Positions 468 through 33,128 of a stretch of DNA of 64,000 nucleotides are shown here, one piece after another. Source of the stretch: Candidatus Omnitrophota bacterium (GTDB lineage: Bacteria > Omnitrophota > Gorgyraeia > Zapsychrales > Fredricksoniimonadaceae). Position 1 is the first letter of the stretch. Every line of letters begins with the position of its first letter. The notes beneath the pieces were generated by a model. It saw only the letters and a program-made list of their open reading frames with translations, was not told where the DNA came from and searched no databases. The position numbers were made by a program, and so were the translations under genes. The stretch lies in assembly GCA_015233335.1 (NCBI GenBank), contig JADFXX010000001.1:134302-198301 (forward strand), given 5' to 3'.

Positions 468-492
468 CCTGTCATTACGAAAAGTCCCCATC

Positions 493-566
493 GTGTCATT
501 GCGAGGAGCGAAGCGACGAAGCAATCTCTTAAAAATGGAATTGCTTCGCTTTACTCGCAATGACAT
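493..566. repeat. Palindromic intergenic repeat, type A, full copy
   Basis: gtgtcattgcgaggagcgaagcgacgaagcaatctc ... gaattgcttcgctttactcgcaatgacat, between the resB-like and ccsA-like genes. An extra partial arm gtcattacga is at 471..480. Confidence 0.9.
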
Positions 567-580
567 TGACATGTTTATTT

Positions 581-2376: not shown

Positions 2377-2439
2377 AACGGGTTACTATACCATTTTAAT
2401 CCGAAAATAAAATAAAAATATGCGAAGGGTATACGGAGT

Positions 2440-3153: not shown

Positions 3154-3162
3154 TCCTCCCCT

Positions 3163-3265
3163 GTGTCATTGCGAGGAGCCCAAAGGGCGACCCCACCAGG
3201 TTGTAAGCAACCAAGCGGCGGGGCCAGTTGGCGAAGCAATCTCTTTTAAAAACGGGGTTGCTTTG
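3163..3265. repeat. Palindromic intergenic repeat, type A, copy with ~50-nt internal insertion and degenerate right arm
   Basis: gtgtcattgcgaggagc + insert + gcgaagcaatctc ... ggggttgctttgccc. Confidence 0.75.
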
Positions 3266-3267
3266 CC

Positions 3268-5328: not shown

Positions 5329-5373
5329 AATAGCCTCTCTGTATAACGTCATTGCGAAAACGGTTAAAACATC

Positions 5374-5465
5374 GTGTCATTGCGAGGAGCAAGGCGACGA
5401 AGCAATCTCTACAGAATTTGTTGTTCTTTCAGGGATTGCTTCCCCCTTCGGGCTCGCAAGGACAC
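5374..5465. repeat. Palindromic intergenic repeat, type A, full copy
   Basis: gtgtcattgcgaggagcaaggcgacgaagcaatctc ... gggattgcttccc..ctcgcaaggacac. An extra partial arm gtcattgcgaaaa is at 5348..5360. Confidence 0.9.
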
Positions 5466-5473
5466 TACCTTTA

Positions 5474-15608: not shown

Positions 15609-16271
15609 CTACTCCAGATCGATCATTTGAGTCTTCCCCACATAATCCGTACGCTTTAGCTGCTCTAAAGCCTGGATTTTTTTAAGAATGGCCATGACCT
15701 TGCCCAACTCATTCTTGACCTTCAACAATGACGCATGACGCTTATCCGTTTCCGGGATTTGAATCAAGAGCCCCTCAAGATAGGCGACCGCGGCCATCAA
15801 CGGCTGGTTCATGTTATGGTTATATGTCACCACCATGTTCTTAACTGTTTCAAGATTGGAGACTTGAAGTTGTTCTTCTTCAGCCCTTTTAATGCGCAGG
15901 TGAGCCTTGACCCGGGTCTTGACCTCTTCGGGTTTAATGGGCTTCACAATATAATCAGCCGCGCCTAAGGCAAAACATTTAGCCATATCTTCCGTGTGAT
16001 CCATGGCAGTAATAAACAGGATCGGGATAGACTTATATTTTTTATCGGCCTTCAGCCTTCGACAAACCTCAAAGCCATCAATCTGGGGCATGATAACATC
16101 AAGCAATATAATATCCGGGGCCCCGCGCTCAATAGATTCAAGCGCAGTAACACCGGAATCAGCTTCTGAAATACTATACCCCTCATCTGCCGCAATCAAA
16201 ACTGCCTTTAGGACCTCGCGGTTGGTCTTTTTGTCATCCACAATTAATATTTTTGAATTGAATTGATCCAT
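15609..16271 (-). CDS. Response regulator: receiver domain plus DHp-like C-terminal helix (no ATPase domain)
   Basis: REC motifs (ILIVDD, PDIILLDVIMP, ADYIVKP). The C-terminus TYNHNMNQPLMAAVAYLEGL resembles a HisKA H-box. I prefer ATG 16271 (GGGAGAAG upstream) to the GTG at 16289. Confidence 0.7.
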   Translation of the reverse strand: MDQFNSKILIVDDKKTNREVLKAVLIAADEGYSISEADSGVTALESIERGAPDIILLDVIMPQIDGFEVCRRLKADKKYKSIPILFITAMDHTEDMAKCFALGAADYIVKPIKPEEVKTRVKAHLRIKRAEEEQLQVSNLETVKNMVVTYNHNMNQPLMAAVAYLEGLLIQIPETDKRHASLLKVKNELGKVMAILKKIQALEQLKRTDYVGKTQMIDLE

Positions 16272-16273
16272 AA

Positions 16274-16813
16274 TTACTTCTTCTCCCACTTTTTGACAAT
16301 AGCGCTGATCTTTTCCTGCACCTTGGATTTGATCTCAATATCGCTCAGGATAGAATTAAGCAGTTCCTCATGTTCTTCAGCCATGCGCAGGATATCCATC
16401 TGCAGTTCCTTGTTTTGCTTTTCTAGGTTGAAACGTTCAATCGCATGTTTCAGGGGCAGCAGCACCTTGTCTTTATCCTCGATGGGTTTAAGGATATAAT
16501 CAAAGGCCCCTTCCCGTAAGGCGTCCTGACATGTTTCCATGGTTCCGAATCCCGTCAGGAAGATCAAAGGGATACGGCTTTCCTTGCTGTTAAGGTACCT
16601 GATGAGTTCAATCCCGCTTTTCCCGGGCATTTTAAGATCACAGATAATGGCTTCAATTTCTTTCTGTCTCCCGATGACCTTGATGGCATTATCAACACCA
16701 TCTGCCGTGTACGCCTCAAATCCCAGCGCCTCCAGAAGCTCCTTGAGAGACTCCCTGATGGCCTCTTCGTCGTCCACCAGCAACACACATCCTAGTTTTA
16801 TATTTTTAGCCAT
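16274..16813 (-). CDS. Response regulator, receiver domain with short coiled C-terminal tail
   Basis: VLLVDDEE, ICDLKMPGKSG and FDYILKP are receiver motifs. GGAGG RBS upstream of the ATG. Confidence 0.8.
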   Translation of the reverse strand: MAKNIKLGCVLLVDDEEAIRESLKELLEALGFEAYTADGVDNAIKVIGRQKEIEAIICDLKMPGKSGIELIRYLNSKESRIPLIFLTGFGTMETCQDALREGAFDYILKPIEDKDKVLLPLKHAIERFNLEKQNKELQMDILRMAEEHEELLNSILSDIEIKSKVQEKISAIVKKWEKK

Positions 16814-16830
16814 GGTTTCCTCCGGTAATT

Positions 16831-18003
16831 TTACAAAATCCCCAGCTCCTCTATAAGCGCTTTATGAAAGGCCGCATCGTTGTTCAAGTCTTTATCACGG
16901 TCCAATGCAAGCGCAAAATAAAAAAACTTCCTCTCATTTTTTAAAGACACAAACCCGATCGTTCCCTTATGGTTCCTTATGATGGTGGATGATACCGAAA
17001 GCCCGAGGCCAGTGCCCTTACCCGGCGCCTTGGTCGTAAAGAAAGGATCAAATAGGTTCTCCTCTGATCCGCTTTTGACCGCAATGCCATTATCAATAAT
17101 GCCGGCTAGGATAGCCGGAAAATCCTTCATTTTCCGAGCTAATACCCGTATCTGGCCGCCCTCCTGCTGATTAAACTTCTCATCAACCGCATCACGGGCA
17201 TTGACCAAAAAATTCACCACTACATCCTGGATCTGATACCGGTCTATGTAAAGCGCAGGAAGATTTTCTTCCAACTCCAAAATAACATTAATGTTATGGT
17301 CCTTAAACTGCTGTGTCAGAAGGAAGATCCCGTCACTAATAGGACGTTTGACATCCCCCTCGGCAAATCCGCCAATCCGTTGTCCGGAATACTCATGCAT
17401 CCGTTTAACGATGGTGCCCAGCCTGACAAACTGGTCCTTGATCTTGATCATCTTGTTCTTTAATATCAAATTTTGTGTAAACTCATCCTGCAGCAAAAGA
17501 CCCTCAATGTGGGATGAAATGGCCATCAAAGGCTGATTCATCTCATGGGCAACACCGGCGCTCAATTCCCCCATCGCGGTCAATTTTGCCGCCCTTAAAA
17601 GCTGCACCTCTTGGGTCTTTAACTGGCGGTATATTTTCTGGTTTTCCAAAGCTCTGCTGATATTCAGCAAAAGCGCATCAAAATTAACAGGTTTGATCAA
17701 ATAATCAGAGGCTCCTTTTTTCAAAGCGGAAATGGCACTTTTGATGTCCCCGTATCCGGTCAGGAGAATAACCTGGGTCTCAGGGCTCATATTTTTAATT
17801 TTTTCCAGCAATTCGAGGCCATCCATACCACCCGGCATACTAATATCGGAAATGATCACATCCGGTGTCTGCAGGTCAAAAATCTCCAAACCTTGTTCTG
17901 CGCTCTTAGCGACAAAGACCTCAAAATTTTTGGCCTCCAGAAGTGTTTGGATCTCAACACGCTGTATTTCTTGATCATCAACAACTAATATTTTTATTTT
18001 CAC
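16831..18003 (-). CDS. Hybrid sensor kinase: N-terminal receiver + HisKA + HATPase_c
   Basis: REC (ILVVDDQE, VIISDISMPG, SDYLIKP), H-box GVAHEMNQPL, N-box NFLVNARDA and G-box GKGTGLGLSV. No obvious sensory or TM domain. Confidence 0.85.
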   Translation of the reverse strand: MKIKILVVDDQEIQRVEIQTLLEAKNFEVFVAKSAEQGLEIFDLQTPDVIISDISMPGGMDGLELLEKIKNMSPETQVILLTGYGDIKSAISALKKGASDYLIKPVNFDALLLNISRALENQKIYRQLKTQEVQLLRAAKLTAMGELSAGVAHEMNQPLMAISSHIEGLLLQDEFTQNLILKNKMIKIKDQFVRLGTIVKRMHEYSGQRIGGFAEGDVKRPISDGIFLLTQQFKDHNINVILELEENLPALYIDRYQIQDVVVNFLVNARDAVDEKFNQQEGGQIRVLARKMKDFPAILAGIIDNGIAVKSGSEENLFDPFFTTKAPGKGTGLGLSVSSTIIRNHKGTIGFVSLKNERKFFYFALALDRDKDLNNDAAFHKALIEELGIL

Positions 18004-18020: not shown

Positions 18021-19514
18021 TCAGGATTTATCCGCGAATTCAACCTTTAACTTTTCATAAGCGGTTTTAAGCCCTGTTAACGCCTCTTTCATCTGATCAA
18101 TGTTCGCCTGTTGTCTGGCCCAATTGTTGATATCGGTTGCCGGTTCGGAAATCACAGTAAGCCTTAAATTAGCAAAGACTCCCTTGATTTGGTGAGAAGC
18201 CTGATCAATTGAGGTAAAATCATTACCTGCGATCGCCTTTTCTAAATTAGCGATATCCGCTTCTGCTTCCTTAATCGCTGAGCTGGCTATCCTTAAATAG
18301 ATCAGCACCGGAAGCTGTAAAGCTTTAGAATTTTGCTGGATCATTTCATCAAAAGAATTACCAGTTTTTTCTTGGCCCATGGACACCCCTTCTCTAACAT
18401 CTTCTTTTGAAGGTGGAGGATTAATCCCCCCCCCCGTTAAATTAGACGGATTTTTTTCAAGTTCAAAAATCTTGATCTGTAGATCCTTGATCTGGTTCTC
18501 ATACTTCTGGATCAACTGGTCCATGTGGATGGATTTACGGAATTCCTCAAACTCCTTGCCTTGGGCAAACTGCGCGATCGCCTCAACCGCCCCTTTAGTT
18601 TTTTCGTCCAGAAGCTCCAGCTTCATCTTGCCCTCCTGCAAACGCATTTTGATCGCATGCAGAGCTTTCTTTTCTTCATCCATCAGTTTTTCAATATGAT
18701 TCATTTCAACTTCTGAAACTTTAAGATGCTTCATACGCTCACCCTCGGCCGTCAAACGCTCAATCTCATCGGATAGACGCTTAATCTCATCTTCTTTACC
18801 GGCAAGTTCTTTTGAAACAGCTGATAAATTTTTGTTTTCTTGCTCCATGGTCACTAGCTGGGCCTTCAGGCTTGCGATCTCCTCTTTGCTCGCCGGGTCT
18901 TCTTTCGGGATCTGACTGATACGCGCAATCTCACTATTCAAACGCTCGATCTCAGATTTGCTTTCCTGCTCCAAGGTCGCCAGCCGGGCCTTCAGGCTTG
19001 CGATCTCCTCTTTGCTCGCCGGGTCTTCTTTCGGCAGCTGACTCAAGTGCTCGACCTCACCTTTAAGCCTCAACACCTCGGCAGTAAGCCCTCTGATTTC
19101 ACTTTCCTTAAGCGCAATTTCTTGGGCCGTTTGTGCCGAATTCTTGTGATCTTCCTCCATCACTGCCAGCTGAGATTTAAGCTTGGCGATCTCCTGGTCC
19201 TTTGTGGCAAACTCGCTTTCCTTTTCCTGAAGTTTTCTTTTAAGCCCCTCTGCCTCACTCGCCCGTGACTGAAGATCATTGTCTTTCCTGATGATCTCCT
19301 CTTTGGCCTGACTAAAATCAGACTGTAACTTGTCCGAGTCTGCTTTCATCCGCTCAAGCGACTTTTTGATCTCTGCCGGATTGCCATCCACCATTCCAAG
19401 CTGTAATTTCAATCTGCTGATCTCAATATTTGCCTCCGAATCTTGACGAAGAAGAAGAAAGGCCACCACAACAGCTGTCAGGACACACGCGCCTAAAAAA
19501 ATAATAATGATCAT
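18021..19514 (-). CDS. Membrane-anchored coiled-coil protein with C-terminal HPt (histidine phosphotransfer) domain
   Basis: 497 aa. One N-terminal TM helix, ~350 aa of heptad-rich E/K/L sequence with an internal 42-aa duplication, and a C-terminus containing the HPt signature SHQIKGVFANL. ATGA overlap with the upstream gene. Confidence 0.65.
   Translation of the reverse strand: MIIIIFLGACVLTAVVVAFLLLRQDSEANIEISRLKLQLGMVDGNPAEIKKSLERMKADSDKLQSDFSQAKEEIIRKDNDLQSRASEAEGLKRKLQEKESEFATKDQEIAKLKSQLAVMEEDHKNSAQTAQEIALKESEIRGLTAEVLRLKGEVEHLSQLPKEDPASKEEIASLKARLATLEQESKSEIERLNSEIARISQIPKEDPASKEEIASLKAQLVTMEQENKNLSAVSKELAGKEDEIKRLSDEIERLTAEGERMKHLKVSEVEMNHIEKLMDEEKKALHAIKMRLQEGKMKLELLDEKTKGAVEAIAQFAQGKEFEEFRKSIHMDQLIQKYENQIKDLQIKIFELEKNPSNLTGGGINPPPSKEDVREGVSMGQEKTGNSFDEMIQQNSKALQLPVLIYLRIASSAIKEAEADIANLEKAIAGNDFTSIDQASHQIKGVFANLRLTVISEPATDINNWARQQANIDQMKEALTGLKTAYEKLKVEFADKS
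18426..18435. repeat. Homopolymer C10 (G10 on coding strand) inside the coiled-coil/HPt CDS
   Basis: Counted directly. It encodes the GGG of ...NLTGGGINPPPS..., the linker between the coiled-coil and HPt parts. Confidence 0.9.
18860..19034. repeat. Tandem 126-bp (42-codon) duplication with 49-nt identical cores
   Basis: gggccttcaggcttgcgatctcctctttgctcgccgggtcttctttcgg occurs at 18860..18908 and 18986..19034. It encodes (Q)(L/I)PKEDPASKEEIASLKA(R/Q)L twice. Confidence 0.9.
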
Positions 19515-20098
19515 GCTTTATCTCCACCGGGCTTAGATTTTAACCCTTTAAGCCTGCGCAACTTTTCTAAGGTCGAATCAATGCCCTTAGACTCCTTCTC
19601 TTCGACTCCGATATCTCCCAGATTACTTTGCACATCTTCATGAACATAAAGTTTGGAAAGGTCTACTGACTCAAAACCCGCAGCTTCCTGGATCTCACGA
19701 AGCTTGTACTCACGGGCAGGTCCGCTCAAAGTTTTAAGGTCCTTGAGCATTCCCGCGATTTTATCAGAAAGTTTGTCTGAAACAGCATCCAGCGAGCCTT
19801 GCAGGATCGCCGCCATGTGCGTCTTGAATTCCTCGAGTGTCATCCCGGCGGCCGGCGCGGCAGATACCGGCGTCCCGGGTGCCGGCATAACCAACGGCGG
19901 GACAACCGGCGCAACCGGCGCCGATGTTTGGGGTTCTTTTAATCTGTTGGTGATACGAACCGTAACAACATCCAAAGACCCCAAGAATTGTCCCATCAGC
20001 AATTCAGTCTCCATAAGTTCCTGATCAAGGGCATACCGGGACTGCCGAAGCTGATCGATCCTTTGAACCAATGTGATATTCTTATCTTCTAAACTCAT
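19511..20098 (-). CDS. Hypothetical protein with central Pro/Ala/Val-rich segment
   Basis: 195 aa with ATGA overlaps at both ends (translational coupling with the actin-like gene upstream and the HPt gene downstream). No recognisable domain. Confidence 0.4.
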   Translation of the reverse strand: MSLEDKNITLVQRIDQLRQSRYALDQELMETELLMGQFLGSLDVVTVRITNRLKEPQTSAPVAPVVPPLVMPAPGTPVSAAPAAGMTLEEFKTHMAAILQGSLDAVSDKLSDKIAGMLKDLKTLSGPAREYKLREIQEAAGFESVDLSKLYVHEDVQSNLGDIGVEEKESKGIDSTLEKLRRLKGLKSKPGGDKA

Positions 20099-21522
20099 GT
20101 ATTCCCGCCGTTAATTGCGTTAAACAGGCATCCGCGCACAACGCTCGTAAAAGGCTCCTTGGCATGAAGGATATTCCCAAGGGTAAATCCAAATTTAGCA
20201 GATTTTACTTCTTCCTTAACGACATCAATAAAACCGGGCACCATGGACGACCCCCCGGCAAAAACAATATCAACAGGTTCTTTGAAATTGGGAGTGTCCT
20301 TACTTTTGCCGAAAACATGGGCCATATTCTCTATAAGATAATGGATATAATTACGGTAATAGATCGCAATCGCCTGCTCTTCGCGGTTGGCAGGTGTCTT
20401 GATGCTCATGCCGTGTTCTTTAATGGTCGATACACGGGTCGTAGGCACACCCAAAACGGTCGCGGCACTTTTATCAATCCAATCCCCGCCGCGAGTGATC
20501 GAAAACGACAGCACAGGGACAGACTTGAACGCCGCGCAAATATTGACCATGCCCGCACCGCAGGAGACCCCAATACCCGTAAAATCCTGGTCCTCCATCT
20601 CAGAAAGGACAACGGCATACCCCTCGTCGATAACCAAAGCCTTAAAACCGATATTCTTAAGGATCCCCTCAAAAACACCGCGGTGATAGATCGTATCCTG
20701 ATCGCGGTCAATAGGCTGGGCAGGGATAGAAAAACAGCAGACCTCACCATCTTCCCGGGGCTCCCATAAAATGTTCTTGACCAATAATTGAATGATGGGG
20801 ATAGACTCAGCTTCAGATGGGTTAAGGATCCCCATATTCATGGACCGCTGGGTCTCCCGCCCGAAGATATCCGCAAGCTCAAGCGCCATACTTCCTAAGA
20901 CATAAAGCTTATCTTGCAGGGCAACATATTTGATCTTAAGCTTGCCCAACAAATCCTTGGTCGATTGATCACAGCGCACAGAAAGAAAAGCGTTACGTTC
21001 ACTTTTGACAAAGACCCTCTTGCCTTCAACCTCACGGCTGGCCACGATATAGGCCGTTCCCAGATCCAGTCCGACACCGGTCCGGACCGCTGATTTCTTC
21101 CCGCGACTCGCCAAAGTCGGAAGCACAACAGTCGTTGTTTCCTCCTCTTCTGCGGCGGCCGGCTCCTCTAAAGTCTCCCCGATCTGTTCAACCGGCTCCT
21201 CTTCGGTCACATCAGCGACTCTTTCCTTGGGCAAAGGTTCTGGTTCAACACGTAGAAAAACAGGCGGCTTGACATTCTTTCCCTGTGCACGGGCACGGAT
21301 ATAGTCATTGATGGCGCGCAATTTGGCGCGCATTTCCTCAACGGGGACTTCCCGTTGAGAGGAATCTTTTTGCGGCTTATATTCTTCTTCGTCAGATAAC
21401 TGCGGTTTTCGACTCAGGCTGGAATAACTCTTGATCTTGTCATTTATCTTTAATAGTCGCTCTCTGATCTGCTGCAATTCACCTTCGACCACTGACTTGC
21501 CTCTTTCTTTGAGTGCGGCCAC
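20095..21522 (-). CDS. Actin-like ATPase (Mad28-like paralog 2) with ~150-aa acidic/coiled N-terminal extension
   Basis: The C-terminal ~320 aa align by eye with the neighbouring 329-aa protein (DLGTAYIV / DVGTMNLV, EDQDFTGIGVSCGAGMVNI / EDQDFTGIGISAGGGMFNI, FAGGSSMVPGF / CAGGSSMIGGF), which are actin-fold phosphate and adenosine motifs. GTG start without a clear RBS, so the start is uncertain. Confidence 0.7.
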   Translation of the reverse strand: MAALKERGKSVVEGELQQIRERLLKINDKIKSYSSLSRKPQLSDEEEYKPQKDSSQREVPVEEMRAKLRAINDYIRARAQGKNVKPPVFLRVEPEPLPKERVADVTEEEPVEQIGETLEEPAAAEEEETTTVVLPTLASRGKKSAVRTGVGLDLGTAYIVASREVEGKRVFVKSERNAFLSVRCDQSTKDLLGKLKIKYVALQDKLYVLGSMALELADIFGRETQRSMNMGILNPSEAESIPIIQLLVKNILWEPREDGEVCCFSIPAQPIDRDQDTIYHRGVFEGILKNIGFKALVIDEGYAVVLSEMEDQDFTGIGVSCGAGMVNICAAFKSVPVLSFSITRGGDWIDKSAATVLGVPTTRVSTIKEHGMSIKTPANREEQAIAIYYRNYIHYLIENMAHVFGKSKDTPNFKEPVDIVFAGGSSMVPGFIDVVKEEVKSAKFGFTLGNILHAKEPFTSVVRGCLFNAINGGNT

Positions 21523-21552
21523 ACTTTTTTCATATTTTCTTTCTGGTGGTGA

Positions 21553-22542
21553 CTATTCAACCTCGCTCAGGCCCGCCAAGAGGCAGCCTCTGGCTGTCGC
21601 ATATAACGGTTCGCTAGCCAACCTCACATCCTTGATAGGAATGGGGAATGACAGCTTCTTAAGTTCTTCTTTAAAGACATCAACAAATCCGCCGATCATG
21701 GATGACCCTCCGGCACAGACAATATTAATGGGTTCCGGGAACTGCGGCATTTGCTCGGCTTTTTCAAATTTATTTTTGATATTGACCAGTGTATAATTGA
21801 TCAAATTGCGGTAATAGATGCAAACCGCTTCTTCTTCGCGGTTGGCTGGTTTGTTGATATTGATCCCTTTTTCCTTAATAGCTGTGGCCCGGTTGACCTT
21901 GATCCCCAAGACCTGTGCCACATTCTTGTCGATCCAGTCACCGGCACGGCTCGTCGCGAAGCTGATGGCCGGGATCGTCTTATAACAAACACAGATATTG
22001 AACATCCCCCCGCCCGCAGAGATGCCGATACCGGTAAAATCCTGGTCTTCCAATTCTGCAAAAACCACCGCGTGCCCTTCATTCATAGGCTTGCCGACAT
22101 AACCCAAATTCTTAAGCGCGCCTGAAATAACGCTTGAGTGATAAACGATATTGAAGTTCGCATCAATAGGATCAGCCGGAACAGAATAATAAACAAGCTG
22201 GTTCTTTTCTTCGGGTTTTCCGAGAACAGCATCGATCAAAAGGCCAAAAATAGGTACAGCATCCGCCTCACCAGGGCTCATGACACCATCCTGCATAGGC
22301 CGGCGCACGGTTTTATTCATAATGTTGGCCAGCTCAAAAGCAGAATCTCCCAAAATATAAACCTTGTTGCCAAGTTCCGCATACTGGACCTTCTGTTTTT
22401 TCAGCATGCTCTTTGTAAATGAATTGGCATCGATATCCAAAAAGGTGTGGCGCATCAATTTAAGCTTGATTTTGCCATCCGCACCCTGCTCAGATCCAAC
22501 CAGGTTCATTGTCCCAACGTCTAACCCTTTGACTTTTCCCAT
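21553..22542 (-). CDS. Actin-like ATPase (Mad28-like paralog 1; ParM/MamK-superfamily)
   Basis: 329 aa. Phosphate-1 GLDVGTMN, phosphate-2 GIGISAGGGM and adenosine CAGGSSMIGG motifs of the actin/Hsp70 fold. Confidence 0.75.
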   Translation of the reverse strand: MGKVKGLDVGTMNLVGSEQGADGKIKLKLMRHTFLDIDANSFTKSMLKKQKVQYAELGNKVYILGDSAFELANIMNKTVRRPMQDGVMSPGEADAVPIFGLLIDAVLGKPEEKNQLVYYSVPADPIDANFNIVYHSSVISGALKNLGYVGKPMNEGHAVVFAELEDQDFTGIGISAGGGMFNICVCYKTIPAISFATSRAGDWIDKNVAQVLGIKVNRATAIKEKGININKPANREEEAVCIYYRNLINYTLVNIKNKFEKAEQMPQFPEPINIVCAGGSSMIGGFVDVFKEELKKLSFPIPIKDVRLASEPLYATARGCLLAGLSEVE

Positions 22543-22554
22543 ACAAAAAACTCC

Positions 22555-23370
22555 TTATTTATGTTTAGCTTTATAATAATGTTCGCGTGCACGGGCACGG
22601 GTATCAGCAAGCATGAGACGGATCTCGTCAAGGCTCCCTTTGCTGTTTTCCAGTTCCCGAATAGCCTGATCCCTTTCGGAAATCACAGAGCCTAGCTCGG
22701 ATTCCGCTGATTCGAGTTTCGCGGCAACAGAGTCCTTTTCATCCTCAAGAAGCGAGACCTGATGGTGCAGGCTCTGGATAGTTTTGTTGGCACTGGAAAG
22801 TTCCAACTCAATTTGTTCGATACGCGTGTCCCTGGCTTCGCATTCTTTTTCAAGGGAGGCGATCTTGTTGTTCCGGTCCTTGATAACAGCTTCACGGGCT
22901 TCCAGCTCTTCTTCAACGGATTTCATTTTACCGACAGACTCTAGCCGTTCATTTTCAAGGAACTCCAGTTCCGAATTAAGTTCTTCCTGAGACACCAGAA
23001 GACCTTTCATCTCTTTAAGTTTGGCCTCCGCGATCGCCGCTTTTTCTTCAGACTTCTGGACGCGCTCTTTAAGCTGCTGGATATCCTTTTCCTGGGCATC
23101 CTTAAGGCTGAAAGAAGCATCAAGCTGTTTTTCCAGATCAGCGATGATTTCAAAAACACTGACCTTCTCCTCTTCGGGAGACATGATATATTTGGTAGAA
23201 TCCTTGATCTGCCTGACCGCAGAACGGATGGCCGCCTTTGGTTCAACAGATGCTGTGCCTGGTCTTTGGGTTGCCGGCTTTAAAGTGGATTGCAGAAGCG
23301 GGTTATCTATGAGCTTACTTCTCCTTGAATCCATGCCCCTACTTACTGGTTGCTTTTCTTGTTTTTCCAT
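22555..23370 (-). CDS. Coiled-coil protein (SMC/intermediate-filament-like heptads)
   Basis: 271 aa, E/K/L-rich, predicted long coiled coil. AAGGAG RBS. The start overlaps the ParA gene end by 32 nt. Confidence 0.5.
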   Translation of the reverse strand: MEKQEKQPVSRGMDSRRSKLIDNPLLQSTLKPATQRPGTASVEPKAAIRSAVRQIKDSTKYIMSPEEEKVSVFEIIADLEKQLDASFSLKDAQEKDIQQLKERVQKSEEKAAIAEAKLKEMKGLLVSQEELNSELEFLENERLESVGKMKSVEEELEAREAVIKDRNNKIASLEKECEARDTRIEQIELELSSANKTIQSLHHQVSLLEDEKDSVAAKLESAESELGSVISERDQAIRELENSKGSLDEIRLMLADTRARAREHYYKAKHK

Positions 23371-24106
23371 CCATAATCTCCTTTGCTAATTGACGGTAAG
23401 CCTCCGCCCCTTTGGAAGTCTTATCATACTTATAGATAGGAAGGTGGGCATTATGGGCCTCTTCTATCTTGATATTCTCTGGGATCACAACCTTAAAGAC
23501 CTTCTTGCCGAAATAATTCCTGATCGCGTCACGCGCTTCGTTCGTCACCACACGCTCGCGGTAACGGGTGATCACAACGCCGGAAATCTCTATATCAGCG
23601 CCAAGGCCGGAGCGGACATTCTCAACGATCTCCTCCAAAAGCTTGATCCCCTTCAGAGAGAAGAATTCAGGACAAATGGGCACGACCAATTCATGACAGG
23701 CGGTCAAAGCGTTGACAGTAAGGAGCCCTAAAGACGGCGGAGCATCCACGATCATATAATCATATTTTAGTTTCTGGGTATAATGATACAGCACCTTTTC
23801 ACGGCCTATATGCTCGTTGATCCGAAGAGTGGCTCCTGAAAGCTCAATATCGCTTGGCACCACATCAATGCCAAAAGCGTCGGAATGCTGGATAACGGTA
23901 CGGATATCCATCTTATCGACGATAACATTATAAATATTGAACTCAAAACGCTGGTTCCCGAAAATAGCCGCCGTTGATGAATATTGGGGGTCCATATCGA
24001 TCAAAATAACCTTTTTACCAGCCCTAGCCAGTTCAGCAGCCAAATTCAAGGATGTCGTGGTCTTGGCAACGCCGCCTTTTTGATTAGCAATACATATCCT
24101 TCTCAT
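23339..24106 (-). CDS. ParA/Soj/MinD-family P-loop ATPase
   Basis: Deviant Walker A NQKGGVAKTTTSLNLA, followed by LIDMDPQ and IVDAPPSLG. Classic ParA layout. Confidence 0.9.
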   Translation of the reverse strand: MRRICIANQKGGVAKTTTSLNLAAELARAGKKVILIDMDPQYSSTAAIFGNQRFEFNIYNVIVDKMDIRTVIQHSDAFGIDVVPSDIELSGATLRINEHIGREKVLYHYTQKLKYDYMIVDAPPSLGLLTVNALTACHELVVPICPEFFSLKGIKLLEEIVENVRSGLGADIEISGVVITRYRERVVTNEARDAIRNYFGKKVFKVVIPENIKIEEAHNAHLPIYKYDKTSKGAEAYRQLAKEIMDGKTRKATSK

Positions 24107-24110
24107 AAAA

Positions 24111-24377
24111 TCACTCTTTCTTTCCCACGTCCAACAAAGCAGTTGCGTCGCTGAACAATGCGCCGATCTGATAGCAGGCCTTATTCAAAAACCCCTTGCG
24201 CGAAGATTTCTTAGGACGACTTTCGATCACCGGACTGTTTTCCAATTTCGTGACCGGAGATGTCATAACCTCGGCAAACCCTTTTTGTAATGCACGGACT
24301 CTCTTGATCCGGGTAGCAGTCTTTTTAAGATGAATGGGTGGTGTTCCCTTTTTCTTGGTCTTTTTAGTTTGCGGCAA
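24111..24377 (-). CDS. Small basic hypothetical protein
   Basis: 88 aa with a K/R-rich N-terminus. TTG start preceded by AAGGAG at 5 nt. Confidence 0.4.
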   Translation of the reverse strand: MPQTKKTKKKGTPPIHLKKTATRIKRVRALQKGFAEVMTSPVTKLENSPVIESRPKKSSRKGFLNKACYQIGALFSDATALLDVGKKE

Positions 24378-24395: not shown

Positions 24396-24584
24396 TTAGC
24401 CTTTTGCGTAGCCTTCGTAAAATGATTCCTTGGCATCGGAGAGTATCGAGTTCAACTTATCGCCGGCACCGTCGATTGACCCCTTGACCTTTTTGATCAG
24501 ATCAGGATTCTTTTTCTCCAGTATCTTGTAACCAACAACCCCGACAAAGACAACGGCCACAGCCGCTAATAATCCTTTTACCAT
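24396..24584 (-). CDS. Small membrane-anchored protein, YtxH-like
   Basis: 62 aa. An N-terminal TM helix (LLAAVAVVFVGVVGY) followed by an amphipathic helix. Starts 3 nt after the HEAT-protein stop. Confidence 0.45.
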   Translation of the reverse strand: MVKGLLAAVAVVFVGVVGYKILEKKNPDLIKKVKGSIDGAGDKLNSILSDAKESFYEGYAKG

Positions 24585-24586: not shown

Positions 24587-25597
24587 TTACCCCCTGTTTA
24601 ATTGAAGTTTAAATTTAGTCTGATTCTCACGCCACCAAAATCTCCAAGCTTCAATAGCATCATCCTTATCTGTCTTAGAGGAACGGGCTTTGAACCCAAA
24701 ATCCTCACCGGTTATCTTCTTTAACGATACCGCAGCCGTTGACTGGACATCATGGTCCGTATCTGCCAGAAGGGTAATTAATCCTGAAATAGCTTGCGCC
24801 ACTTTAAGAGCACCCGTGATCTGAGCTGCTGCCTTGCGGACACCGGGGTCTGGATCATGCAGTGCCGCAACGGCATGCAGCGAGCATCGCTCACTGAAGC
24901 TCCAGCAAAGGCAGTTTAAGACCTGTCTTCTGACCTCATGGTCACGATCTTTCAAAGCAGAAGCTAAAATATTAAACCCTTCATCGTCATGATACTTGGA
25001 GATGGCCCGCAGTGCCGCCAAACGGATCCCCGTATCCTGATGGCCGATAAAATTCTTGAACACCTCTTTTGTAGTAGCGCCGTCTTCGCTGACAGAGGCC
25101 AAGGCATTTAACAACTCGATGATCTGCAGGGTGTCCTGTTCACGGGAAAGCAGCTCTTCAAGCATCGCGACCGCGGTAGGTCTGGAAAGTTTTTTGATCT
25201 GTCGCAAGGCCTGAATCCGTACGGCCCGGCTGGGTGATTGGATATCTCTGAAATATATTTCTACCTCAACCTCTTCGGTCTTATTGGCAAAAGCCACATT
25301 CTTTAATCCGGCTTGGCGGACAGGAAGAGCCTTCTCAAGAGCCGGCTCGGGCTTTTTCTTTTCGACCACAGGTAGTGATACCACAGGCTCAATACGAGAA
25401 ACCGGCAAAACCGCAGGGGCCACGACCGCAGCCGGAGCTGGGGTCACAGCGACGGTTTGCGCGACCGCCTTTACCACAGCAGGTGTCCGCCTGCCAAAAG
25501 CCAAAAGATAACTAAACTCCTTTTCAACACTTTTGACCGCAACACCCAAAAAATGCGCCAAATCGTTCTGCACACCTGTAGTACTTTTTGTTTGCAT
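24587..25597 (-). CDS. HEAT-repeat protein (Mad23/25/26-like scaffold candidate), module 1
   Basis: 336 aa. The C-terminal half carries repeated PBS-lyase/HEAT units (DTGIRLAALRAI, DRDHEVRRQVLNCL, DPDPGVRKAAAQIT, DTDHDVQSTAAVSL). Confidence 0.7.
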   Translation of the reverse strand: MQTKSTTGVQNDLAHFLGVAVKSVEKEFSYLLAFGRRTPAVVKAVAQTVAVTPAPAAVVAPAVLPVSRIEPVVSLPVVEKKKPEPALEKALPVRQAGLKNVAFANKTEEVEVEIYFRDIQSPSRAVRIQALRQIKKLSRPTAVAMLEELLSREQDTLQIIELLNALASVSEDGATTKEVFKNFIGHQDTGIRLAALRAISKYHDDEGFNILASALKDRDHEVRRQVLNCLCWSFSERCSLHAVAALHDPDPGVRKAAAQITGALKVAQAISGLITLLADTDHDVQSTAAVSLKKITGEDFGFKARSSKTDKDDAIEAWRFWWRENQTKFKLQLNRG

Positions 25598-26293: not shown

Positions 26294-27928
26294 TTATTTC
26301 CTGCCTTTTTTCTCTGCAGGCCGCACTTGTGCCCTCTTGGCGGCGGCTGACGTCTGAAGGTCTCGCAATAATCGGGGCTTAATATAGCTTTCTTTGGCCA
26401 ATGCCTTCCAAACCCTGGCCTGACGCTTGCGCTCGGGCAAAGTGGCTGAATAATCATACCCCTGATCTGTCCCGGTCAGGCTGATTAAAGCCTCGATCGT
26501 TTCCTTGCACACCTTAATATTTGAAGATTCCAGTTTAGGGACCAAGGTCACGAAGGCAAAATGATTACCCATAAGCCCAAGTTTGCGGATCGCAACCCGC
26601 GCAACCCCTTCATCAATATCAGCGGACAGACGTGCGATGGCCGAAGCCTCCGGGTCACCTGCCCTATGATCGAGATGATTGACAATAAACCGGCGGATAT
26701 GCGGATCAGGGTCCCTGATAGCTGATACGATGACATGCTTAGCTTCATCAGAACCAAGCTTAACTAACCCCATCATTCCCTGCAATCTGAGAGATGAATC
26801 TTCATCATTAATAAAACGCCGATAAAGATCGACCAAGGTAGGATAATCCAAAACGCTCAGAAGCGATAACAGCTTCCTCTGAAAAAAGATATCCGCTTCA
26901 CGGGTCAACTCATAAAGCAGAGGGACCGCTCTTTTAGGGGCATTGCGAAAGATCGTATGCAAAACCGCCAGCTTATCTTCATCAGAAGTGCTTTCACTTG
27001 AAAGCTTGCGTCCGGCAGTCTCGAGCAGCCCATAGTCGGCCGCGGCTTCATCTGTTTCAACGCTCGGGCTTTCCATAAAATCTTCCTGTTCGGAAGATAA
27101 GGACTCCTCCTCTTGTGTCGATTCTAGGGTCTCTTCTTGCGGCTCATCTTGACTGACAATCTCTTCTTGCGGCTCATCTTGGGGATATTCCGGAACAGAC
27201 GCCGCAGGAGGCAGGCGGTCTTTGAGACTTGGGCCTTCGACACGGGCCTGCTCAAGGTCTTTTTCGTAAACCGTGTTAATGTTCTTAAAAAGAACTACCA
27301 CCTCATCAATAAGGTCATCCACGCGTTTGGTCGTCTGATTGACTTCCTGCTCAAGTTTTTCCAGAAAAGACTTTTCAGCCTTCCACATGGCAACCTCAGG
27401 ATTATCAGCAAAGAATTTCTTTTTCGTTTCCATAATAAGTTTGATCTCCTCCCGCTTCTTGGCCATCAAAAGAATAAGCTTCTGGATCTTTTCATCCAAA
27501 GCAGCCTGATAGGCCGCGGTCCTCTCACCGGTCGTATGCAAAAGACCGGCAGACAGACAGTCGTTCAAATCTTTCTGGACATCAAGGATCCTGTTTTCCG
27601 CCACACGCAAAGCAACGTTCATCTGAGTGTACGGCTCGATCTGCCCCCGCCGGGAAATTTCGGGCGGCCGTGCTTCTTGGGGTTTTTCCTCTTTGACGGG
27701 AGCTTGTCCCTGAACCTTTTTCTCTTTCCTGTCAAAGATCTTCTCTTGGACTACATCCCTGATGAGCCTCTTGGCTGAAACCATTAAGGCCGGATCTTCA
27801 GGATCAAAATAATAAGCAATGGAGCCGGCCTGAATATTCTCATACAAGAGCCTGCCCAATGTGATGAACAAAGAATCAGTTTGGGTACCGCACTCGTTTA
27901 GAAGTTCGCGTTTATTCTTAGTCGGCAT
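26294..27928 (-). CDS. HEAT-repeat protein with N-terminal coiled-coil/acidic region, module 2
   Basis: 544 aa. C-terminal HEAT units (DEDSSLRLQGMMGL, DPDPHIRRFIVNHL, DIDEGVARVAIRKL). The N-terminus is paralogous to the 357-aa protein (LFITLGRLLYENIQAGSIAYYFDPED vs LVFLFGEQIHQLYKSQDINFIFSPEG). Confidence 0.7.
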   Translation of the reverse strand: MPTKNKRELLNECGTQTDSLFITLGRLLYENIQAGSIAYYFDPEDPALMVSAKRLIRDVVQEKIFDRKEKKVQGQAPVKEEKPQEARPPEISRRGQIEPYTQMNVALRVAENRILDVQKDLNDCLSAGLLHTTGERTAAYQAALDEKIQKLILLMAKKREEIKLIMETKKKFFADNPEVAMWKAEKSFLEKLEQEVNQTTKRVDDLIDEVVVLFKNINTVYEKDLEQARVEGPSLKDRLPPAASVPEYPQDEPQEEIVSQDEPQEETLESTQEEESLSSEQEDFMESPSVETDEAAADYGLLETAGRKLSSESTSDEDKLAVLHTIFRNAPKRAVPLLYELTREADIFFQRKLLSLLSVLDYPTLVDLYRRFINDEDSSLRLQGMMGLVKLGSDEAKHVIVSAIRDPDPHIRRFIVNHLDHRAGDPEASAIARLSADIDEGVARVAIRKLGLMGNHFAFVTLVPKLESSNIKVCKETIEALISLTGTDQGYDYSATLPERKRQARVWKALAKESYIKPRLLRDLQTSAAAKRAQVRPAEKKGRK

Positions 27929-28362
27929 TATATTTCCGCAACATCCTTGGTGGCCTTTTCGATCTCTTTTTCAAGATCAGGATCGGCTGATACTTTTTTG
28001 ACGGCTTTCTTGGCGCCACCTTTACGGGCCACAGTCTTCTTTTTAGGCAAAACCACAGCTTGGGCGACTTTAGGCTTGCTCTGCACGTGGCCTTCGCTAA
28101 CCGAATCCATTCCTGCCCTAAATGACTGTCTTATCTCCCGAGTACTTTTCTCAACTGTTTTGGTAACTTGGTCCAACACCACCTCGGCCTTCTCACCGAA
28201 ACTGTCACAAATATCCTGGGTCGCAACCACCACACTTTTAAGCGGTTTCTTTTCAGCGACCCGTCCCAACTCCACGACCTTTTTACACAGAAAACCTGTC
28301 TTGTAAGAAATGGCCTTTAAAAGCCCTTGAAGCTCACTGTTCTTATTTTTTTCTTTGACCAT
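27928..28362 (-). CDS. Small basic protein partnered with HEAT module 3
   Basis: 144 aa. Overlaps the upstream gene by 20 nt and the downstream gene by 1 nt (TAATG), implying translational coupling. Confidence 0.45.
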   Translation of the reverse strand: MVKEKNKNSELQGLLKAISYKTGFLCKKVVELGRVAEKKPLKSVVVATQDICDSFGEKAEVVLDQVTKTVEKSTREIRQSFRAGMDSVSEGHVQSKPKVAQAVVLPKKKTVARKGGAKKAVKKVSADPDLEKEIEKATKDVAEI

Positions 28363-29416
28363 AAGTTTTATTCCTTTTTCTTTCCGGCATAAGTTTCTCT
28401 AATGCCTTCTCAGCCGCTTTTTTAACATCTTCTTCTTTATCAGATAACAAGTTCTTGACCGCCCTCAGGGCCCCTTCAGGCTTGACGATAGAAAGCATCT
28501 CAAGCAGGCTGATACGGACAAAGGAGCTTGGGTCTTCCCACGCCCTTATCGCCTTACTGACCCCTTCCTTACCATAATATATTCCCAAATAGGTCACAGC
28601 AAGCCCTCGAATATGCTGGTCATTGTCCTGAAGAAGGCTTTCGAGGATCTCGCCGTTCCTTGGGCTCACATGACTGCCGAGGCCCTTGATCGCCGCAGTC
28701 CTGACCTTGATGTCAGGATCATTCATGCCCAGCTCAAAGAACCCAGCAGAATCGCCCTCCTTCATACGGGAAATACTCTTCATAACAGCCATGCGAACAA
28801 GAGCGCTCTCATCCTTCATAGCAAATTCGTAGACCTGGCGCAAGACCTCAACCGGAGTTATATGCGCGATTTGCCCGAGGGCAACCTCGCGTTCGCGGAC
28901 AGAACCCATTGAGAACTGCTTAATGTTGCGTTCAAAAAGCCTTCTGTCCGCATCAGAGGTGAACACGGCCGTATCAAGAAGCCGGGTTAAAGTGTCATCA
29001 AGCCTGACTTTTTCTTGGGCAAAAGGAGCGCTTATTGAATTTTCTTCTTCAACAATTTTCTTGACCTCTGATTCAACAACGCTGATCTGCTCCCCGGTCT
29101 GCGACTCTTCGGCCTCTTGCTGTAAGCCCTCTTCCTCATCAAGGGTTGCCTTATCTTCTTGTGCGGCTTCCTCTTGGAGCCAAGCCTCGTCCTCAAGTTC
29201 ATCTTCTTCTAATCCGTCCTCTTGAAGATCGGAAATTCTCTCATCAAGATAGTCCAAAAGCCTTATAAGCCGATCGATCTCCTTTTCTTTAAGACGACCT
29301 TCAGGTGAAAAAATAAAATTTATATCTTGAGATTTATAAAGCTGGTGAATCTGCTCACCAAACAAAAAAACCAGCTTCCTGTGCTTATCTTTAAGTTCCT
29401 GCAGTTGAGGCTCCAT
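28343..29416 (-). CDS. HEAT-repeat protein with acidic coiled N-terminal region, module 3
   Basis: 357 aa. HEAT units (DESALVRMAVMKSI, DPDIKVRTAAIKGL, DNDQHIRGLAVTYL, DPSSFVRISLLEML, DKEEDVKKAAEKAL). Confidence 0.7.
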   Translation of the reverse strand: MEPQLQELKDKHRKLVFLFGEQIHQLYKSQDINFIFSPEGRLKEKEIDRLIRLLDYLDERISDLQEDGLEEDELEDEAWLQEEAAQEDKATLDEEEGLQQEAEESQTGEQISVVESEVKKIVEEENSISAPFAQEKVRLDDTLTRLLDTAVFTSDADRRLFERNIKQFSMGSVREREVALGQIAHITPVEVLRQVYEFAMKDESALVRMAVMKSISRMKEGDSAGFFELGMNDPDIKVRTAAIKGLGSHVSPRNGEILESLLQDNDQHIRGLAVTYLGIYYGKEGVSKAIRAWEDPSSFVRISLLEMLSIVKPEGALRAVKNLLSDKEEDVKKAAEKALEKLMPERKRNKTYGQRKK

Positions 29417-29540: not shown

Positions 29541-30293
29541 TCAGCTTTTAAAAAAATGCCCTAAAAACCCTTTTAATCTTCCGAAGCCCTCTTTCTTATC
29601 GGCCGCCTTATGATGGAGAGTCTCCCCCGCTTCTTCAAAATTCTTCCAGACCGAAATATTCTTGACGACATCCGCATCAAGGGCAATGCTGGCCCCTTCA
29701 CATTCAATGACATAGGTCGGATAATTCTGATGAAGCTTGACGAATACACCGGGCCGAATGCACAGCCCGTCAAGCTTATGGATCTGCTGATCGCTTTTGC
29801 AATTGATATAGGCGATCCGGGCCGATTCCCCAAGCTTAAGATCAGCGAGGGGAATAATAAAACTGGAAGCGCTCTTGATGGCCTGCAGGCAACACTCGCC
29901 TTCCGGTATGGGCATGCCATGGGGGCATTCTTTAGGATGCCCCAAAAGAGTACAGATGCCGTTAACAAGCTCAAGCGAAACCGTATGTTCAAATTCGCAG
30001 GCGATAGACTCAAGGTCACCGCCGCCTAAAACATCGGCTACAAGCCGCTCTGCGAGCCTATGCGCCCTGATCAATTGCCGGGCGCGGTCTTCGCCTTCAG
30101 GGGTGAGTTTAATGGTCGCAGTCTTCGGGTCCCACTCAAGAAGCCCTCGCAGGGAAAGCTCTTCAATGATCTTGGCATCAAAAGAACGCTTCATGGCCTT
30201 CTTAAGAAAATCGATCGAAGTCTCTTTTTGCTCCTTCATATACCAGAGCTGTTCGATATGTTCGTCCTGTTCCTCATTTCTTTCTATAGCCAT
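29541..30293 (-). CDS. DtxR/IdeR/MntR-family metal-dependent transcriptional regulator with C-terminal FeoA/SH3-like domain
   Basis: 250 aa. A winged-helix region, then RAHRLAERLVADVLG and ECPHGMPIP (the DtxR metal-site region), then a C-terminal FeoA-like LKLGESARIAYI...IRPGVFVKL. Confidence 0.85.
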   Translation of the reverse strand: MAIERNEEQDEHIEQLWYMKEQKETSIDFLKKAMKRSFDAKIIEELSLRGLLEWDPKTATIKLTPEGEDRARQLIRAHRLAERLVADVLGGGDLESIACEFEHTVSLELVNGICTLLGHPKECPHGMPIPEGECCLQAIKSASSFIIPLADLKLGESARIAYINCKSDQQIHKLDGLCIRPGVFVKLHQNYPTYVIECEGASIALDADVVKNISVWKNFEEAGETLHHKAADKKEGFGRLKGFLGHFFKS

Positions 30294-33073: not shown

Positions 33074-33128
33074 CCTCTTCACTTCAGGGACATTCAGGAT
33101 GCGGTTGGGCTTACTTTCCACAGGACTC

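Follow-up and report, generated by a model that had tools for sequence, protein, structure and literature searches.

How does a bacterium that already encodes the actin-like protein MamK make use of two further actin-like proteins and a ParA-type ATPase, all encoded side by side within its magnetosome gene cluster? The question is raised by a 64,000-nucleotide (nt) stretch of a "Candidatus Omnitrophota" genome (contig JADFXX010000001.1 of assembly GCA_015233335.1; here called the window), which contains a full magnetosome gene cluster. An earlier note on this DNA had proposed that three filament formers and a ParA gradient system may be combined here to position or segregate an organelle. The four open reading frames (ORFs) on which it drew, encoding ParA, a coiled-coil protein, and two actin-fold proteins, are present on the minus strand between 20095 and 24106 and do lie among magnetosome genes. 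Instead of forming a separate unit, they are part of a larger conserved block that sits at the cluster's end, spans roughly 16.8 to 29.4 kb of the window, and has all of its genes on the minus strand. We read this block as the chain-organizing ("magnetoskeleton") part of the cluster, consisting of two filament sub-modules of the Mad28 family and, here, a ParA acting through a coiled-coil adaptor, and assign this reading a probability of about 0.55. The first sub-module would consist of the Mad25-like coiled-coil protein and a short, core-only actin, and the second of a Mad23-like HEAT protein, a long actin, and a 195-amino-acid (aa) protein, p195.

The short actin (329 aa; 21553-22542, minus strand) and the long actin (475 aa; 20095-21522, minus strand) score 263.6 and 277.6 bits, the latter over residues 150 to 469, on the Pfam model Volactin (PF25216; cut-off, 35 bits), and neither has another Pfam match above threshold. 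They are clear paralogs, as had been noted, being 44% identical over 321 ungapped aligned residues (E = 6e-109) and sharing the blocks EDQDFTGIG, RAGDWIDK/RGGDWIDK, and AGGSSM. The mad28 gene of Desulfamplus magnetovallimortis BW-1, which was located in the genome via a published cloning primer (Table S1, PMC10653835), encodes a 403-aa protein that scores 268.8 bits on the Volactin model and is 37% identical to the short actin and 34% identical to the long actin. Similar results were obtained with Mad28 of strain RS-1 (P0336), the overall identity of the window actins to Mad28 being 32 to 37%. Since BW-1 Mad28 matches the Volactin model as the window actins do, Mad28 belongs to the volactin family, and the suspected link to Mad28 holds for both paralogs. 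The short actin is also 60% identical to single-copy Planctomycetota proteins and, over its full length, 38% identical to a homolog from Halogeometricum.

The third actin-like protein of the cluster (372 aa; 56434-57552, minus strand), 33.9 kb from the actin pair, was rightly described as MamK-like; it passes the NCBIfam MamK model NF040964 (436.4 bits; cut-off, 400) and also matches Pfam MreB_Mbl. The two paralogs reach only 35.1 and 26.3 bits on NF040964 and were rejected as extra copies of MamK. Their identity to MamK is about 21 to 22% over aligned columns, and BLASTP returned only a 25% local match, to the short copy. The names saltatorellin and Bbp were also considered for the Planctomycetota relatives and rejected, since both proteins are described in the literature as resembling MamK and the primers for saltatorellin code for a C-terminus of the MamK type; neither is thus a member of the volactin family.

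The phylogeny that the earlier note had called for was built by neighbor joining (333 columns, 200 bootstraps) and included Escherichia coli MreB and FtsA, ParM, two MamK proteins, and the Halogeometricum and a huge-phage homolog. The volactin/Mad28 family is separated from MamK, MreB, ParM, and FtsA with 100% bootstrap support, and within it the Desulfobacterota Mad28 clade, the Omnitrophota short copies, and the Omnitrophota long copies each receive 100%. The window actins are not nested within the clade of RS-1 and BW-1 Mad28 but fall in a Planctomycetes-Verrucomicrobia-Chlamydiae (PVC) clade together with Planctomycetota and huge-phage genes (92%). The short copies group with the Planctomycetota genes (86%), and a grouping of short with long copies receives 0%, from which it follows that the duplication is old. 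Judged by this tree, the actin pair is an old duplication in the PVC lineage, with a conservative short copy and a divergent long copy that is confined to the Omnitrophota. Identity to the window proteins in related loci ranges from 71 to 87% for the short copy and from 52 to 73% for the long copy.

Members of the family also occur in other settings. The members of the Desulfobacterota clade that were examined sit in magnetosome clusters (L008, L036, and L037). Full-length members are encoded by two huge phages, namely, LR745208.1, a 485-kb "uncultured phage" (L031 3929-4972), and LR756511.1; they are 41% and 34% identical, respectively, to the short paralog, and the LR745208.1 gene, which falls in the PVC clade (92%), is flanked by ORFs of 207 and 372 aa. 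No bacterial plasmid was found to carry a homolog, the five plasmid matches being nonmobilizable haloarchaeal replicons of 360 to 990 kb. One of these is pHBOR01 of Halogeometricum borinquense (L030 3995-5182), where an archaea-specific SMC-related gene lies about 3 kb from the volactin-like gene; the other four are likewise large, nonmobilizable, secondary replicons. An Omnitrophica genome with HQL21 locus tags (GCA_015228785.1) contains, besides HQL21_08340/08350, a second tandem volactin pair of 333 and 487 aa (L038 8961-11464), which sits between genes for a CHASE2-SpoIIE phosphatase and an anti-sigma-type kinase. Together with MamK, some Omnitrophota may thus have five actin-like proteins.

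Both window actins contain the residues expected of working ATPases. Each copy retains the phosphate-1 aspartate (GLDxGT), the catalytic glutamate (NEG/DEG), the adenosine motif (AGGSS), and the GDWIDK block, together with all 41 residues that are conserved in at least 95% of 53 aligned family members; a loss of catalytic residues, which the earlier note had considered, was not observed. In the phosphate-2 motif, DxGxGT is replaced by GxSxGxGM (Ser175 and Met180 in the numbering of the short copy) in all of the family members aligned, including BW-1 Mad28 and the haloarchaeal homolog, and the serine and methionine are therefore a family trait and no defect of this locus. Further family-invariant residues are Tyr134-His135, Asn182, and Cys184. 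An AlphaFold2 model of the long actin, computed from a 65-sequence alignment, has an actin fold with a predicted local distance difference test (pLDDT) score above 90 for residues 150 to 472. Its closest solved fold is the MamK filament (5LJV; template modeling [TM] score, 0.71), followed by MreB, and by sequence the solved relatives are MamK chains only (E of about 2e-6). BW-1 Mad28 polymerizes in vitro (PMC10653835). Both window actins are predicted to be active, ATP-dependent filament formers.

The two copies differ at the N-terminus. The short actin begins five residues before the DxGT motif and has no extension, whereas the long actin carries an extension of 149 residues (21076-21522, minus strand) with two amphipathic helices, an acidic, proline-rich linker, and a TTxxLP motif. 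The description of this extension as acidic and some 150 aa in length was correct as to length, but only residues 86 to 149 are acidic (proline-rich; pI 4.4), whereas residues 1 to 85, which hold both helices, are basic (pI 9.7), and the extension as a whole contains 29 Asp and Glu residues versus 27 Lys and Arg residues. An alignment of 23 orthologs revealed a common plan, consisting of motif 1, a variable linker, motif 2, an acidic, proline-rich linker of variable length, TTxxLP, and the actin core. Motif 1 (ELQxxRxRLxKINxKIK) and motif 2 (EEMRAKLRAINxYxR) are kept in most of these orthologs and resemble each other, with hydrophobic moments of 0.47 and 0.52. The AlphaFold2 model places helices at residues 6 to 36 and 61 to 79 (pLDDT, 85 to 91), the remainder of the extension being disordered. 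The reference Mad28 proteins have N-terminal extensions of 70 to 76 residues; in RS-1 Mad28, N-terminal truncations abolish filament formation, and the protein binds liposomes (PMC12713370). The long copy thus matches, in its predicted structure, the canonical Mad28 architecture of an N-terminal helical extension and an actin core.

The arrangement of these genes in related loci indicates which parts belong together. Gene contexts were taken from the encoding contigs (L002 and L005 to L007) and from one metagenome scan (L009 to L029), and the window proteins were mapped onto them. Two layouts were found. In layout A (the window, L002, L005, L006, L007, L011, L021, L025, and L027), the order is a 336-aa HEAT-repeat protein (HEAT336), a 62-aa protein (p62), ParA, the coiled-coil protein, short actin, long actin, p195, a membrane coiled-coil protein, and signaling genes. 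In layout B (L012 to L016, L023, L026, L028, and L029), it is DtxR-FeoA, p144, HEAT544, p62, the coiled-coil protein, short actin, about seven two-component genes, HEAT336, long actin, and p195. Layout B lacks ParA; some 7.5 kb separates its two actin genes, each of which has partner genes of its own. Locus L017 contains the coiled-coil/short-actin pair and, with its upstream end cut off, is assigned to neither layout. Comparison of the layouts leaves as constant pairs the coiled-coil protein with the short actin and the long actin with p195, the latter with or without HEAT336, and leaves ParA as an optional component; in view of this sister group of loci, ParA cannot be counted as a constant part of the module. 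The block adjoins cluster genes (for example, TauE, FeoB, FecR, and DtxR-FeoA) in the window, L005, L007, L012, L016, and L028. A close relative, L002/L003 (positions 1-6400; DD723; JGI Ga0209211_10000699), has a short actin that is 86% identical and a block that starts at HEAT336, preceded by genes for NAPRTase, AAA_14/DUF4143, and SLFN-AlbA/Fic-like proteins; the contigs of two assemblies made independently break off at an identical position, 6.4 kb upstream of the block, and the DD723 genome did not come up in the literature searched.

Layout B also bears on the proposal, made in the earlier note, that the two actins are a heteropolymer or a filament and its regulator. If the pair were obligate, the long copy might cap, nucleate, or membrane-anchor filaments of the short copy. 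This would fit the presence of both copies in 7/7 distinct loci long enough to show both, the slower evolution of the short copy, the restriction of the N-terminal helices to the long copy, and the reported ability of MamK and Mad28 to form heteropolymers (PMC12748827, citing PMC10653835). Layout B, however, separates the two genes by about 7.5 kb of signaling genes and gives each its own partners, which fits two sub-modules better than an obligate pair, and the split is old, with the short copy being nearer to Planctomycetota genes than to its neighbor (0% bootstrap support for short plus long). An obligate pairing therefore seems doubtful.

The optional component, ParA (255 aa; 23339-24106, minus strand), has the NQKGGVAKTTT motif by which it had been recognized and matches Pfam AAA_31 (168 bits) and CbiA (96 bits). 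Its full-length matches in the Protein Data Bank (PDB) are ParA 8RAY (175 bits) and Thermus Soj 1WCV (168 bits; residues 1 to 246). The signature lysine is kept, as is an arginine aligned with that of the Thermus Soj sequence YDGRT, and the protein ends in a lysine-rich tail. With 73 to 90% identity across loci, it is the best-conserved protein of the block. No ParB domain was found in the block, and the ParB-like or centromere-like partner that might have been expected did not emerge from DNA scans: matches to the parS consensus were at chance level (3 versus 1.2 expected, with 12/100 shuffles reaching 3), and a repeat search detected no iterons, the direct repeats 1455 nt apart being the two actin paralogs themselves. 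With no ParB, no parS beyond chance, and no iterons, DNA is unlikely to be the cargo. By these matches, the protein is an orphan ParA of the Soj type.

This ATPase is not the ParA-like one that the earlier note mentioned as part of the mad repertoire. In BW-1 and RS-1, one or two small genes separate mad28 from a downstream gene for a P-loop ATPase of 303 to 304 aa, to which we apply the name Mad29 on the grounds of gene order and region size rather than a named sequence. This arrangement agrees with the mad28-mad29 gene order and the 2.6-kb region that have been published (PMC7951924; 10.1101/2022.03.28.486042). The BW-1 Mad29-type protein is of the MinD/FleN type (72 bits to MinD, 70 to FleN, and 35 to Soj) and shares only P-loop similarity with the Soj-type ParA of the window. 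Identity between the two is 26 to 33% and confined to the N-terminal part of the ATPase, and the window-ParA profile scores 34 to 44 bits on Mad29-like proteins versus >480 bits on full-length orthologs. On these grounds, and with other nearest solved structures, an assignment of the window ParA as Mad29 was rejected. An independent case of a ParA-like protein with two Mad28 proteins and MamK was seen on a 751-kb ENA contig of Desulfobacterota type (L036 9050-15382), with the order 307-aa ParA-like protein (Mad29 type), 363-aa Volactin protein, 202-aa gene, 391-aa Volactin protein, 160-aa gene, and 359-aa MamK.

The coiled-coil protein (271 aa; 22555-23370, minus strand), which has only weak coiled-coil matches in Pfam, provides the candidate connection between ParA and the short actin. 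It is always encoded directly upstream of the short actin, its profile finds it in every Omnitrophota locus, and it contains strongly conserved blocks. The longest ORF overlaps the end of the ParA gene by 32 nt, as had been noted, and an AAGGAG Shine-Dalgarno sequence lies 7 nt before its ATG; a second in-frame ATG (Met13) lies just past the ParA stop codon. No RNA structure was found at this junction (z = 0.59). Residues 16 to 30 form a basic peptide, RRSKLIDNPLLQSTL (23281-23325, minus strand), that is present in all nine distinct loci with an adjacent ParA. The pattern (R/K)x(L/R/K)IDNPLLQSTL occurs in the basic N-terminus of 9/9 layout-A coiled-coil proteins, whereas IDNPLLQS occurs in none of the eight ParA-less loci that could be scored at the N-terminus of the coiled-coil protein. 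All eight scored layout-B proteins begin just past the position of the peptide and otherwise align along their whole length, and a six-frame pattern search of all 10 layout-B loci did not detect the peptide. The short-actin tree nests layout B within layout A, beside L007, which implies a single joint loss (or gain) of ParA and the peptide. ParB, McdB, PomX, and similar partners address their ParA proteins by means of a short N-terminal peptide. The peptide RRSKLIDNPLLQSTL is thus a candidate ParA-interaction motif. The coiled-coil protein also bears a weak likeness to Mad25: its profile matches the protein at the Mad25 position of L037 (E = 2e-7) and that of RS-1 (E = 2e-3), and BLASTP gives 23% identity over 243 aa (E = 2e-4). 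In two-hybrid assays, Mad28 is reported to interact only with Mad25 (Russell et al., PMC12748827).

These elements can be assembled into a possible mechanism. In this lineage, a Soj-type orphan ParA would have come to be placed before the coiled-coil gene, with the matching IDNPLLQS peptide on the adaptor. ParA-ATP dimers would bind the nucleoid, and the adaptor peptide would contact ParA and stimulate it. The adaptor would in turn be attached either to the filament of the short actin or to the magnetosome chain, so that the nucleoid would serve as the reference for positioning or partitioning the chain. The long actin, its partner, and small membrane proteins may fix the chain to the membrane or to the cell curvature, as does RS-1 Mad28, and MamK would space subchains. 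What the sequences establish is gene content, family membership, intact motifs, synteny, and the joint inheritance of ParA and the peptide; filament formation, membrane binding by the long copy, contact of ParA with the adaptor, nucleoid binding, and a role in positioning or segregation are predictions from them. To our knowledge, the placement and inheritance of chains in deep-branching magnetotactic bacteria are understood only from Desulfovibrio (Solidesulfovibrio) magneticus RS-1, in which MamK, Mad28, and coiled-coil Mad proteins cooperate.

Several points weigh against reading the block as the chain-organizing part of the cluster with ParA working through the adaptor. The co-occurrence of ParA and the peptide amounts to essentially one evolutionary event and is suggestive rather than statistical proof. 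The weak similarity to Mad25 could reflect the composition bias of coiled coils. The Walker A motif of ParA is deviant (KGGVAKTT), with an alanine, invariant in five orthologs, where a glycine is usual before Lys-Thr; this substitution of the conserved glycine of GK[ST] in all orthologs may bear on the ATPase activity of ParA. The target of ParA could be the actin filaments themselves or something quite different, and all of the protein interactions proposed for the Omnitrophota are ones that we infer. The actin family is, in addition, widespread among nonmagnetotactic Planctomycetota and among haloarchaea, in which it has a role in cell shape (PMC10869688), and the upstream edges of L002, L006, and L011 consist of other genes (NAPRTase, FtsW/RodA, and an ABC ATPase) and not of mam genes, which leaves room for a general cytoskeletal role.

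These last two points lead to the main rival, according to which the block is a general cytoskeleton for cell shape, division, or nucleoid organization that merely lies beside magnetosome genes, with ParA serving in ordinary cell organization. The Planctomycetota relatives to which the short paralog is 60% identical are single-copy genes whose neighbors are housekeeping genes and do not include magnetosome genes (L001, in a 7.9-Mb contig, and L035), and the haloarchaeal volactin-like proteins are, at 38% identity, as close to the short paralog as is Mad28; the flanks of L002, L006, and L011 point in the same direction. In the Omnitrophota, however, the genes are seen only among the Mad23-like HEAT, DtxR-FeoA, FecR, and FeoB genes of magnetosome clusters, and the family is rare for so large a phylum. 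Many of the matches to Omnitrophica metagenome-assembled genomes (MAGs) bear HQL locus tags, which are presumably those of the magnetically enriched genomes of Lin et al. 2020. That study reports 20 Omnitrophota genomes of magnetotactic bacteria (PMC7602337), and most of the named matches come from these HQL-tagged MAGs; the long actin of the window is itself 100% identical to HQL14_00670 of a "Candidatus Omnitrophica bacterium" MAG. Deletion of mad28 in RS-1 mislocalizes chains, with no shape defect reported (PMC12748827). A general cytoskeleton is therefore unlikely.

A DNA-segregation system, in the form of a ParM-like partition cassette or a chromosomal Soj of mobile or plasmid origin, is highly improbable: the ParA is closest to chromosomal Soj proteins, actin-like ATPases beside small adaptor genes resemble parMRC cassettes, and haloarchaeal megaplasmids as well as two huge phages carry homologs, but the actins are only 16 to 19% identical to ParM, lack a Pfam StbA match, and form a separate family at 100% bootstrap rather than grouping with plasmid ParM/StbA proteins amid mobile flanks, and the block has no ParB or ParR domain, no iterons, parS matches only at chance level, uniform GC content, and no homolog on a bacterial plasmid, so that ParM-like plasmid partition was rejected.

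Among the remaining genes of the block is p195 (19511-20098, minus strand). It lies directly downstream of the long actin with a 4-nt start/stop overlap, the long actin, p195, and the following 497-aa gene being joined by successive 4-nt overlaps, and orthologs occur at this same position in every locus of either layout that reaches that point. p195 has no Pfam family; a single-sequence search placed its family at 42 clusters at 50% identity among 1.84 billion proteins. Its C-terminal module of about 45 aa (L..LY...VQSN...GVEEKESKGI..LEKLRRL; 19529-19663, minus strand) also ends the 317- to 400-aa coiled-coil proteins that are encoded immediately upstream of a single volactin-like gene in three independent Planctomycetota-like loci (L018, L019/L020, and L024), and it is faint in L001. 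These partners were found only by profile and C-terminus alignment and were not reached by the single-sequence p195 search. The recurrence of the module indicates that this actin family has long had an adaptor dedicated to it, and in the Omnitrophota this adaptor seems to be divided between the two actin copies.

HEAT336 (24587-25597, minus strand; Pfam HEAT_2, 72 bits) is related to the C-terminal HEAT region of Mad23 (31% identity over 168 aa to RS-1 Mad23; E = 2e-18); its conserved gene precedes that of ParA in layout A, whereas in layout B it immediately precedes that of the long actin. Farther upstream, Mad23-like HEAT proteins of 544 and 357 aa and a small conserved protein (26294-29416, minus strand; Pfam HEAT_2; RS-1 Mad23, E = 1.5e-10) connect the block to the iron-uptake part of the cluster and are syntenic in L005, L006, L007, L011, and L016. 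p62 (24396-24584, minus strand) has no Pfam family, one N-terminal hydrophobic helix, and a C-terminal ESFYEGYA motif; it is likely a membrane anchor and has orthologs in all loci of both layouts (profile scores, 67 to 116 bits). A possible small basic protein of 88 aa (24111-24377, minus strand), also without a Pfam family, is a doubtful gene, although a similar 97-aa ORF with a conserved C-terminus is present in L005. Downstream of p195, a membrane-anchored coiled-coil protein of 497 aa (18021-19514, minus strand) has an N-terminal hydrophobic helix and a C-terminal Hpt domain (37 bits; residues 414 to 490). A tandem repeat of 126 nt (42 aa) lies within its gene at 18827-19060. The Hpt fusion is present only in this genome, the orthologs (263 to 407 aa) having none, and it may link a phosphorelay directly to the cytoskeletal module. 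Adjacent two-component genes (15609-18003, minus strand; Pfam Response_reg, HisKA, and HATPase_c) encode two receiver proteins and a 390-aa hybrid receiver-kinase; their synteny holds in every locus, and in layout B they lie between the two actin genes. Promoter and terminator scans gave uninformative results at shuffle level.

Elsewhere in the window, the cluster includes a MamE-like protease, two magnetochrome proteins, two CDF transporters (MamM/B), the TPR protein MamA, the LemA protein MamQ, a TauE protein, FeoB, FecR, and DtxR-FeoA. GC content and skew are even across the window, including the block, and no integrase, transposase, or other mobile-element gene was found among the window ORFs scanned. 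A complete partner-switching set is present within the cluster (49535-54844), consisting of a CHASE2-SpoIIE phosphatase (52970-54844), a STAS protein (52622-52957), an anti-sigma-type HATPase_c_2 kinase (49875-50291), and a second STAS protein (49535-49870), with an MlaEFD transporter between these genes. STAS proteins are encoded directly beside mad28 in RS-1 and BW-1 as well (L008 9395-9712; L004 4820-5128). The iron-handling part contains two FeoB genes (31157-33151 and 60597-62693) and unusual fusions of rubrerythrin with VIT1 (58253-59206), of PDZ with a CitMHS/ArsB-type transporter (36155-37957), and of the DtxR C-terminal domain with FeoA (29541-30293).

The presence of Mad28 actins beside MamK is not in itself new; the joint occurrence of MamK and Mad28, the function of RS-1 Mad28, and several divergent mad28 copies have all been published (PMC10653835, PMC12748827, PMC12713370, and 10.1101/2022.03.28.486042). 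As far as the searched literature shows, what is undescribed is the split Omnitrophota actin pair, the Soj-type ParA with its matched peptide, and the C-terminal partner module. We also found no paper that places Mad28 in the volactin family, with its many nonmagnetotactic members. The locus is accordingly a new layout of an organelle-positioning system whose kind is already known. Mad28 function appears to be naturally divided here, with a core-only actin and an actin with N-terminal helices each accompanied by its own partner genes, and the IDNPLLQS peptide is a specific candidate for the site at which a ParA ATPase meets an actin-associated adaptor. Through the placement of Mad28 in the volactin family, magnetosome positioning becomes connected with a cytoskeletal element found in archaea and Planctomycetota, which argues for a general cytoskeleton as the source from which Mad28 was recruited. 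As a wider and more tentative reading, Mad28 might be one branch of a volactin family that extends to haloarchaea, nonmagnetotactic Planctomycetota, and huge phages and has its own adaptor with the ~45-aa module; in magnetotactic Omnitrophota, the actin would have been duplicated and one copy wired to a Soj-type ParA via a newly gained peptide, giving a hybrid ParA-actin machine for organelle positioning. If that were so, ParA would be coupled to actin filaments to position an organelle, and we are not aware of any experimental description of a system in which ParA works on the same cargo as actin-like filaments.

Of the known systems, Mad28 of Desulfobacterota (RS-1 and BW-1) and Nitrospirota is among the closest: it has near-identical scores on Volactin PF25216 and the same Ser/Met phosphate-2 motif, is encoded with MamK in a magnetosome cluster, resembles the long window copy as predicted in having an N-terminal helical extension and a core, and has a P-loop ATPase and coiled-coil and HEAT Mad proteins encoded nearby. 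It differs in its 32 to 37% identity, in that the window pair lies outside the Desulfobacterota clade, and in that the window has two copies of different architectures and partners, the short one without an extension. The volactin of Haloferax volcanii (HVO_2015) is of the same Pfam family as the window actins and forms dynamic filaments (PMC10869688), but it is archaeal, acts in the rod-to-disk shape transition, has no link to magnetosomes or ParA, and has other neighbor genes. MamK is likewise an actin-like filament former of the same cluster and provides the closest solved fold to the window actin model, but it belongs to another family (21 to 22% identity), and the RS-1 mamK and mad28 mutants are unlike in phenotype (PMC12748827). 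Mad29 of RS-1, BW-1, FSS-1, and Nitrospirota is, like the window ParA, an ATPase of the ParA/MinD superfamily within one to three genes of a Mad28-family actin, but is of the MinD/FleN type, whereas the window ParA is of the Soj type at 168 to 175 bits. ParMRC also has an actin-fold ATPase beside small adaptor genes, but the relation is one of fold only (16 to 19%), and ParR, parC, and a plasmid context are lacking here.

On the side of ParA, orphan ParA systems that position a cargo by means of a dedicated adaptor include McdA/McdB of carboxysomes, PomXYZ, and ParC/ParP. They share with the window an orphan ParA without ParB or parS and an adjacent, possibly translationally coupled partner. 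Like those adaptors, the window partner is a coiled-coil protein with a basic, disordered N-terminus and a short peptide, and here peptide and ParA have been gained or lost together. No sequence relation to McdB, PomX/Y, or ParP was found, no search aimed at one having been made, and the window adaptor differs from theirs in being encoded always beside an actin-like gene. Unlike in the known ParA-adaptor systems, ParA and an actin filament system thus appear to be coupled.

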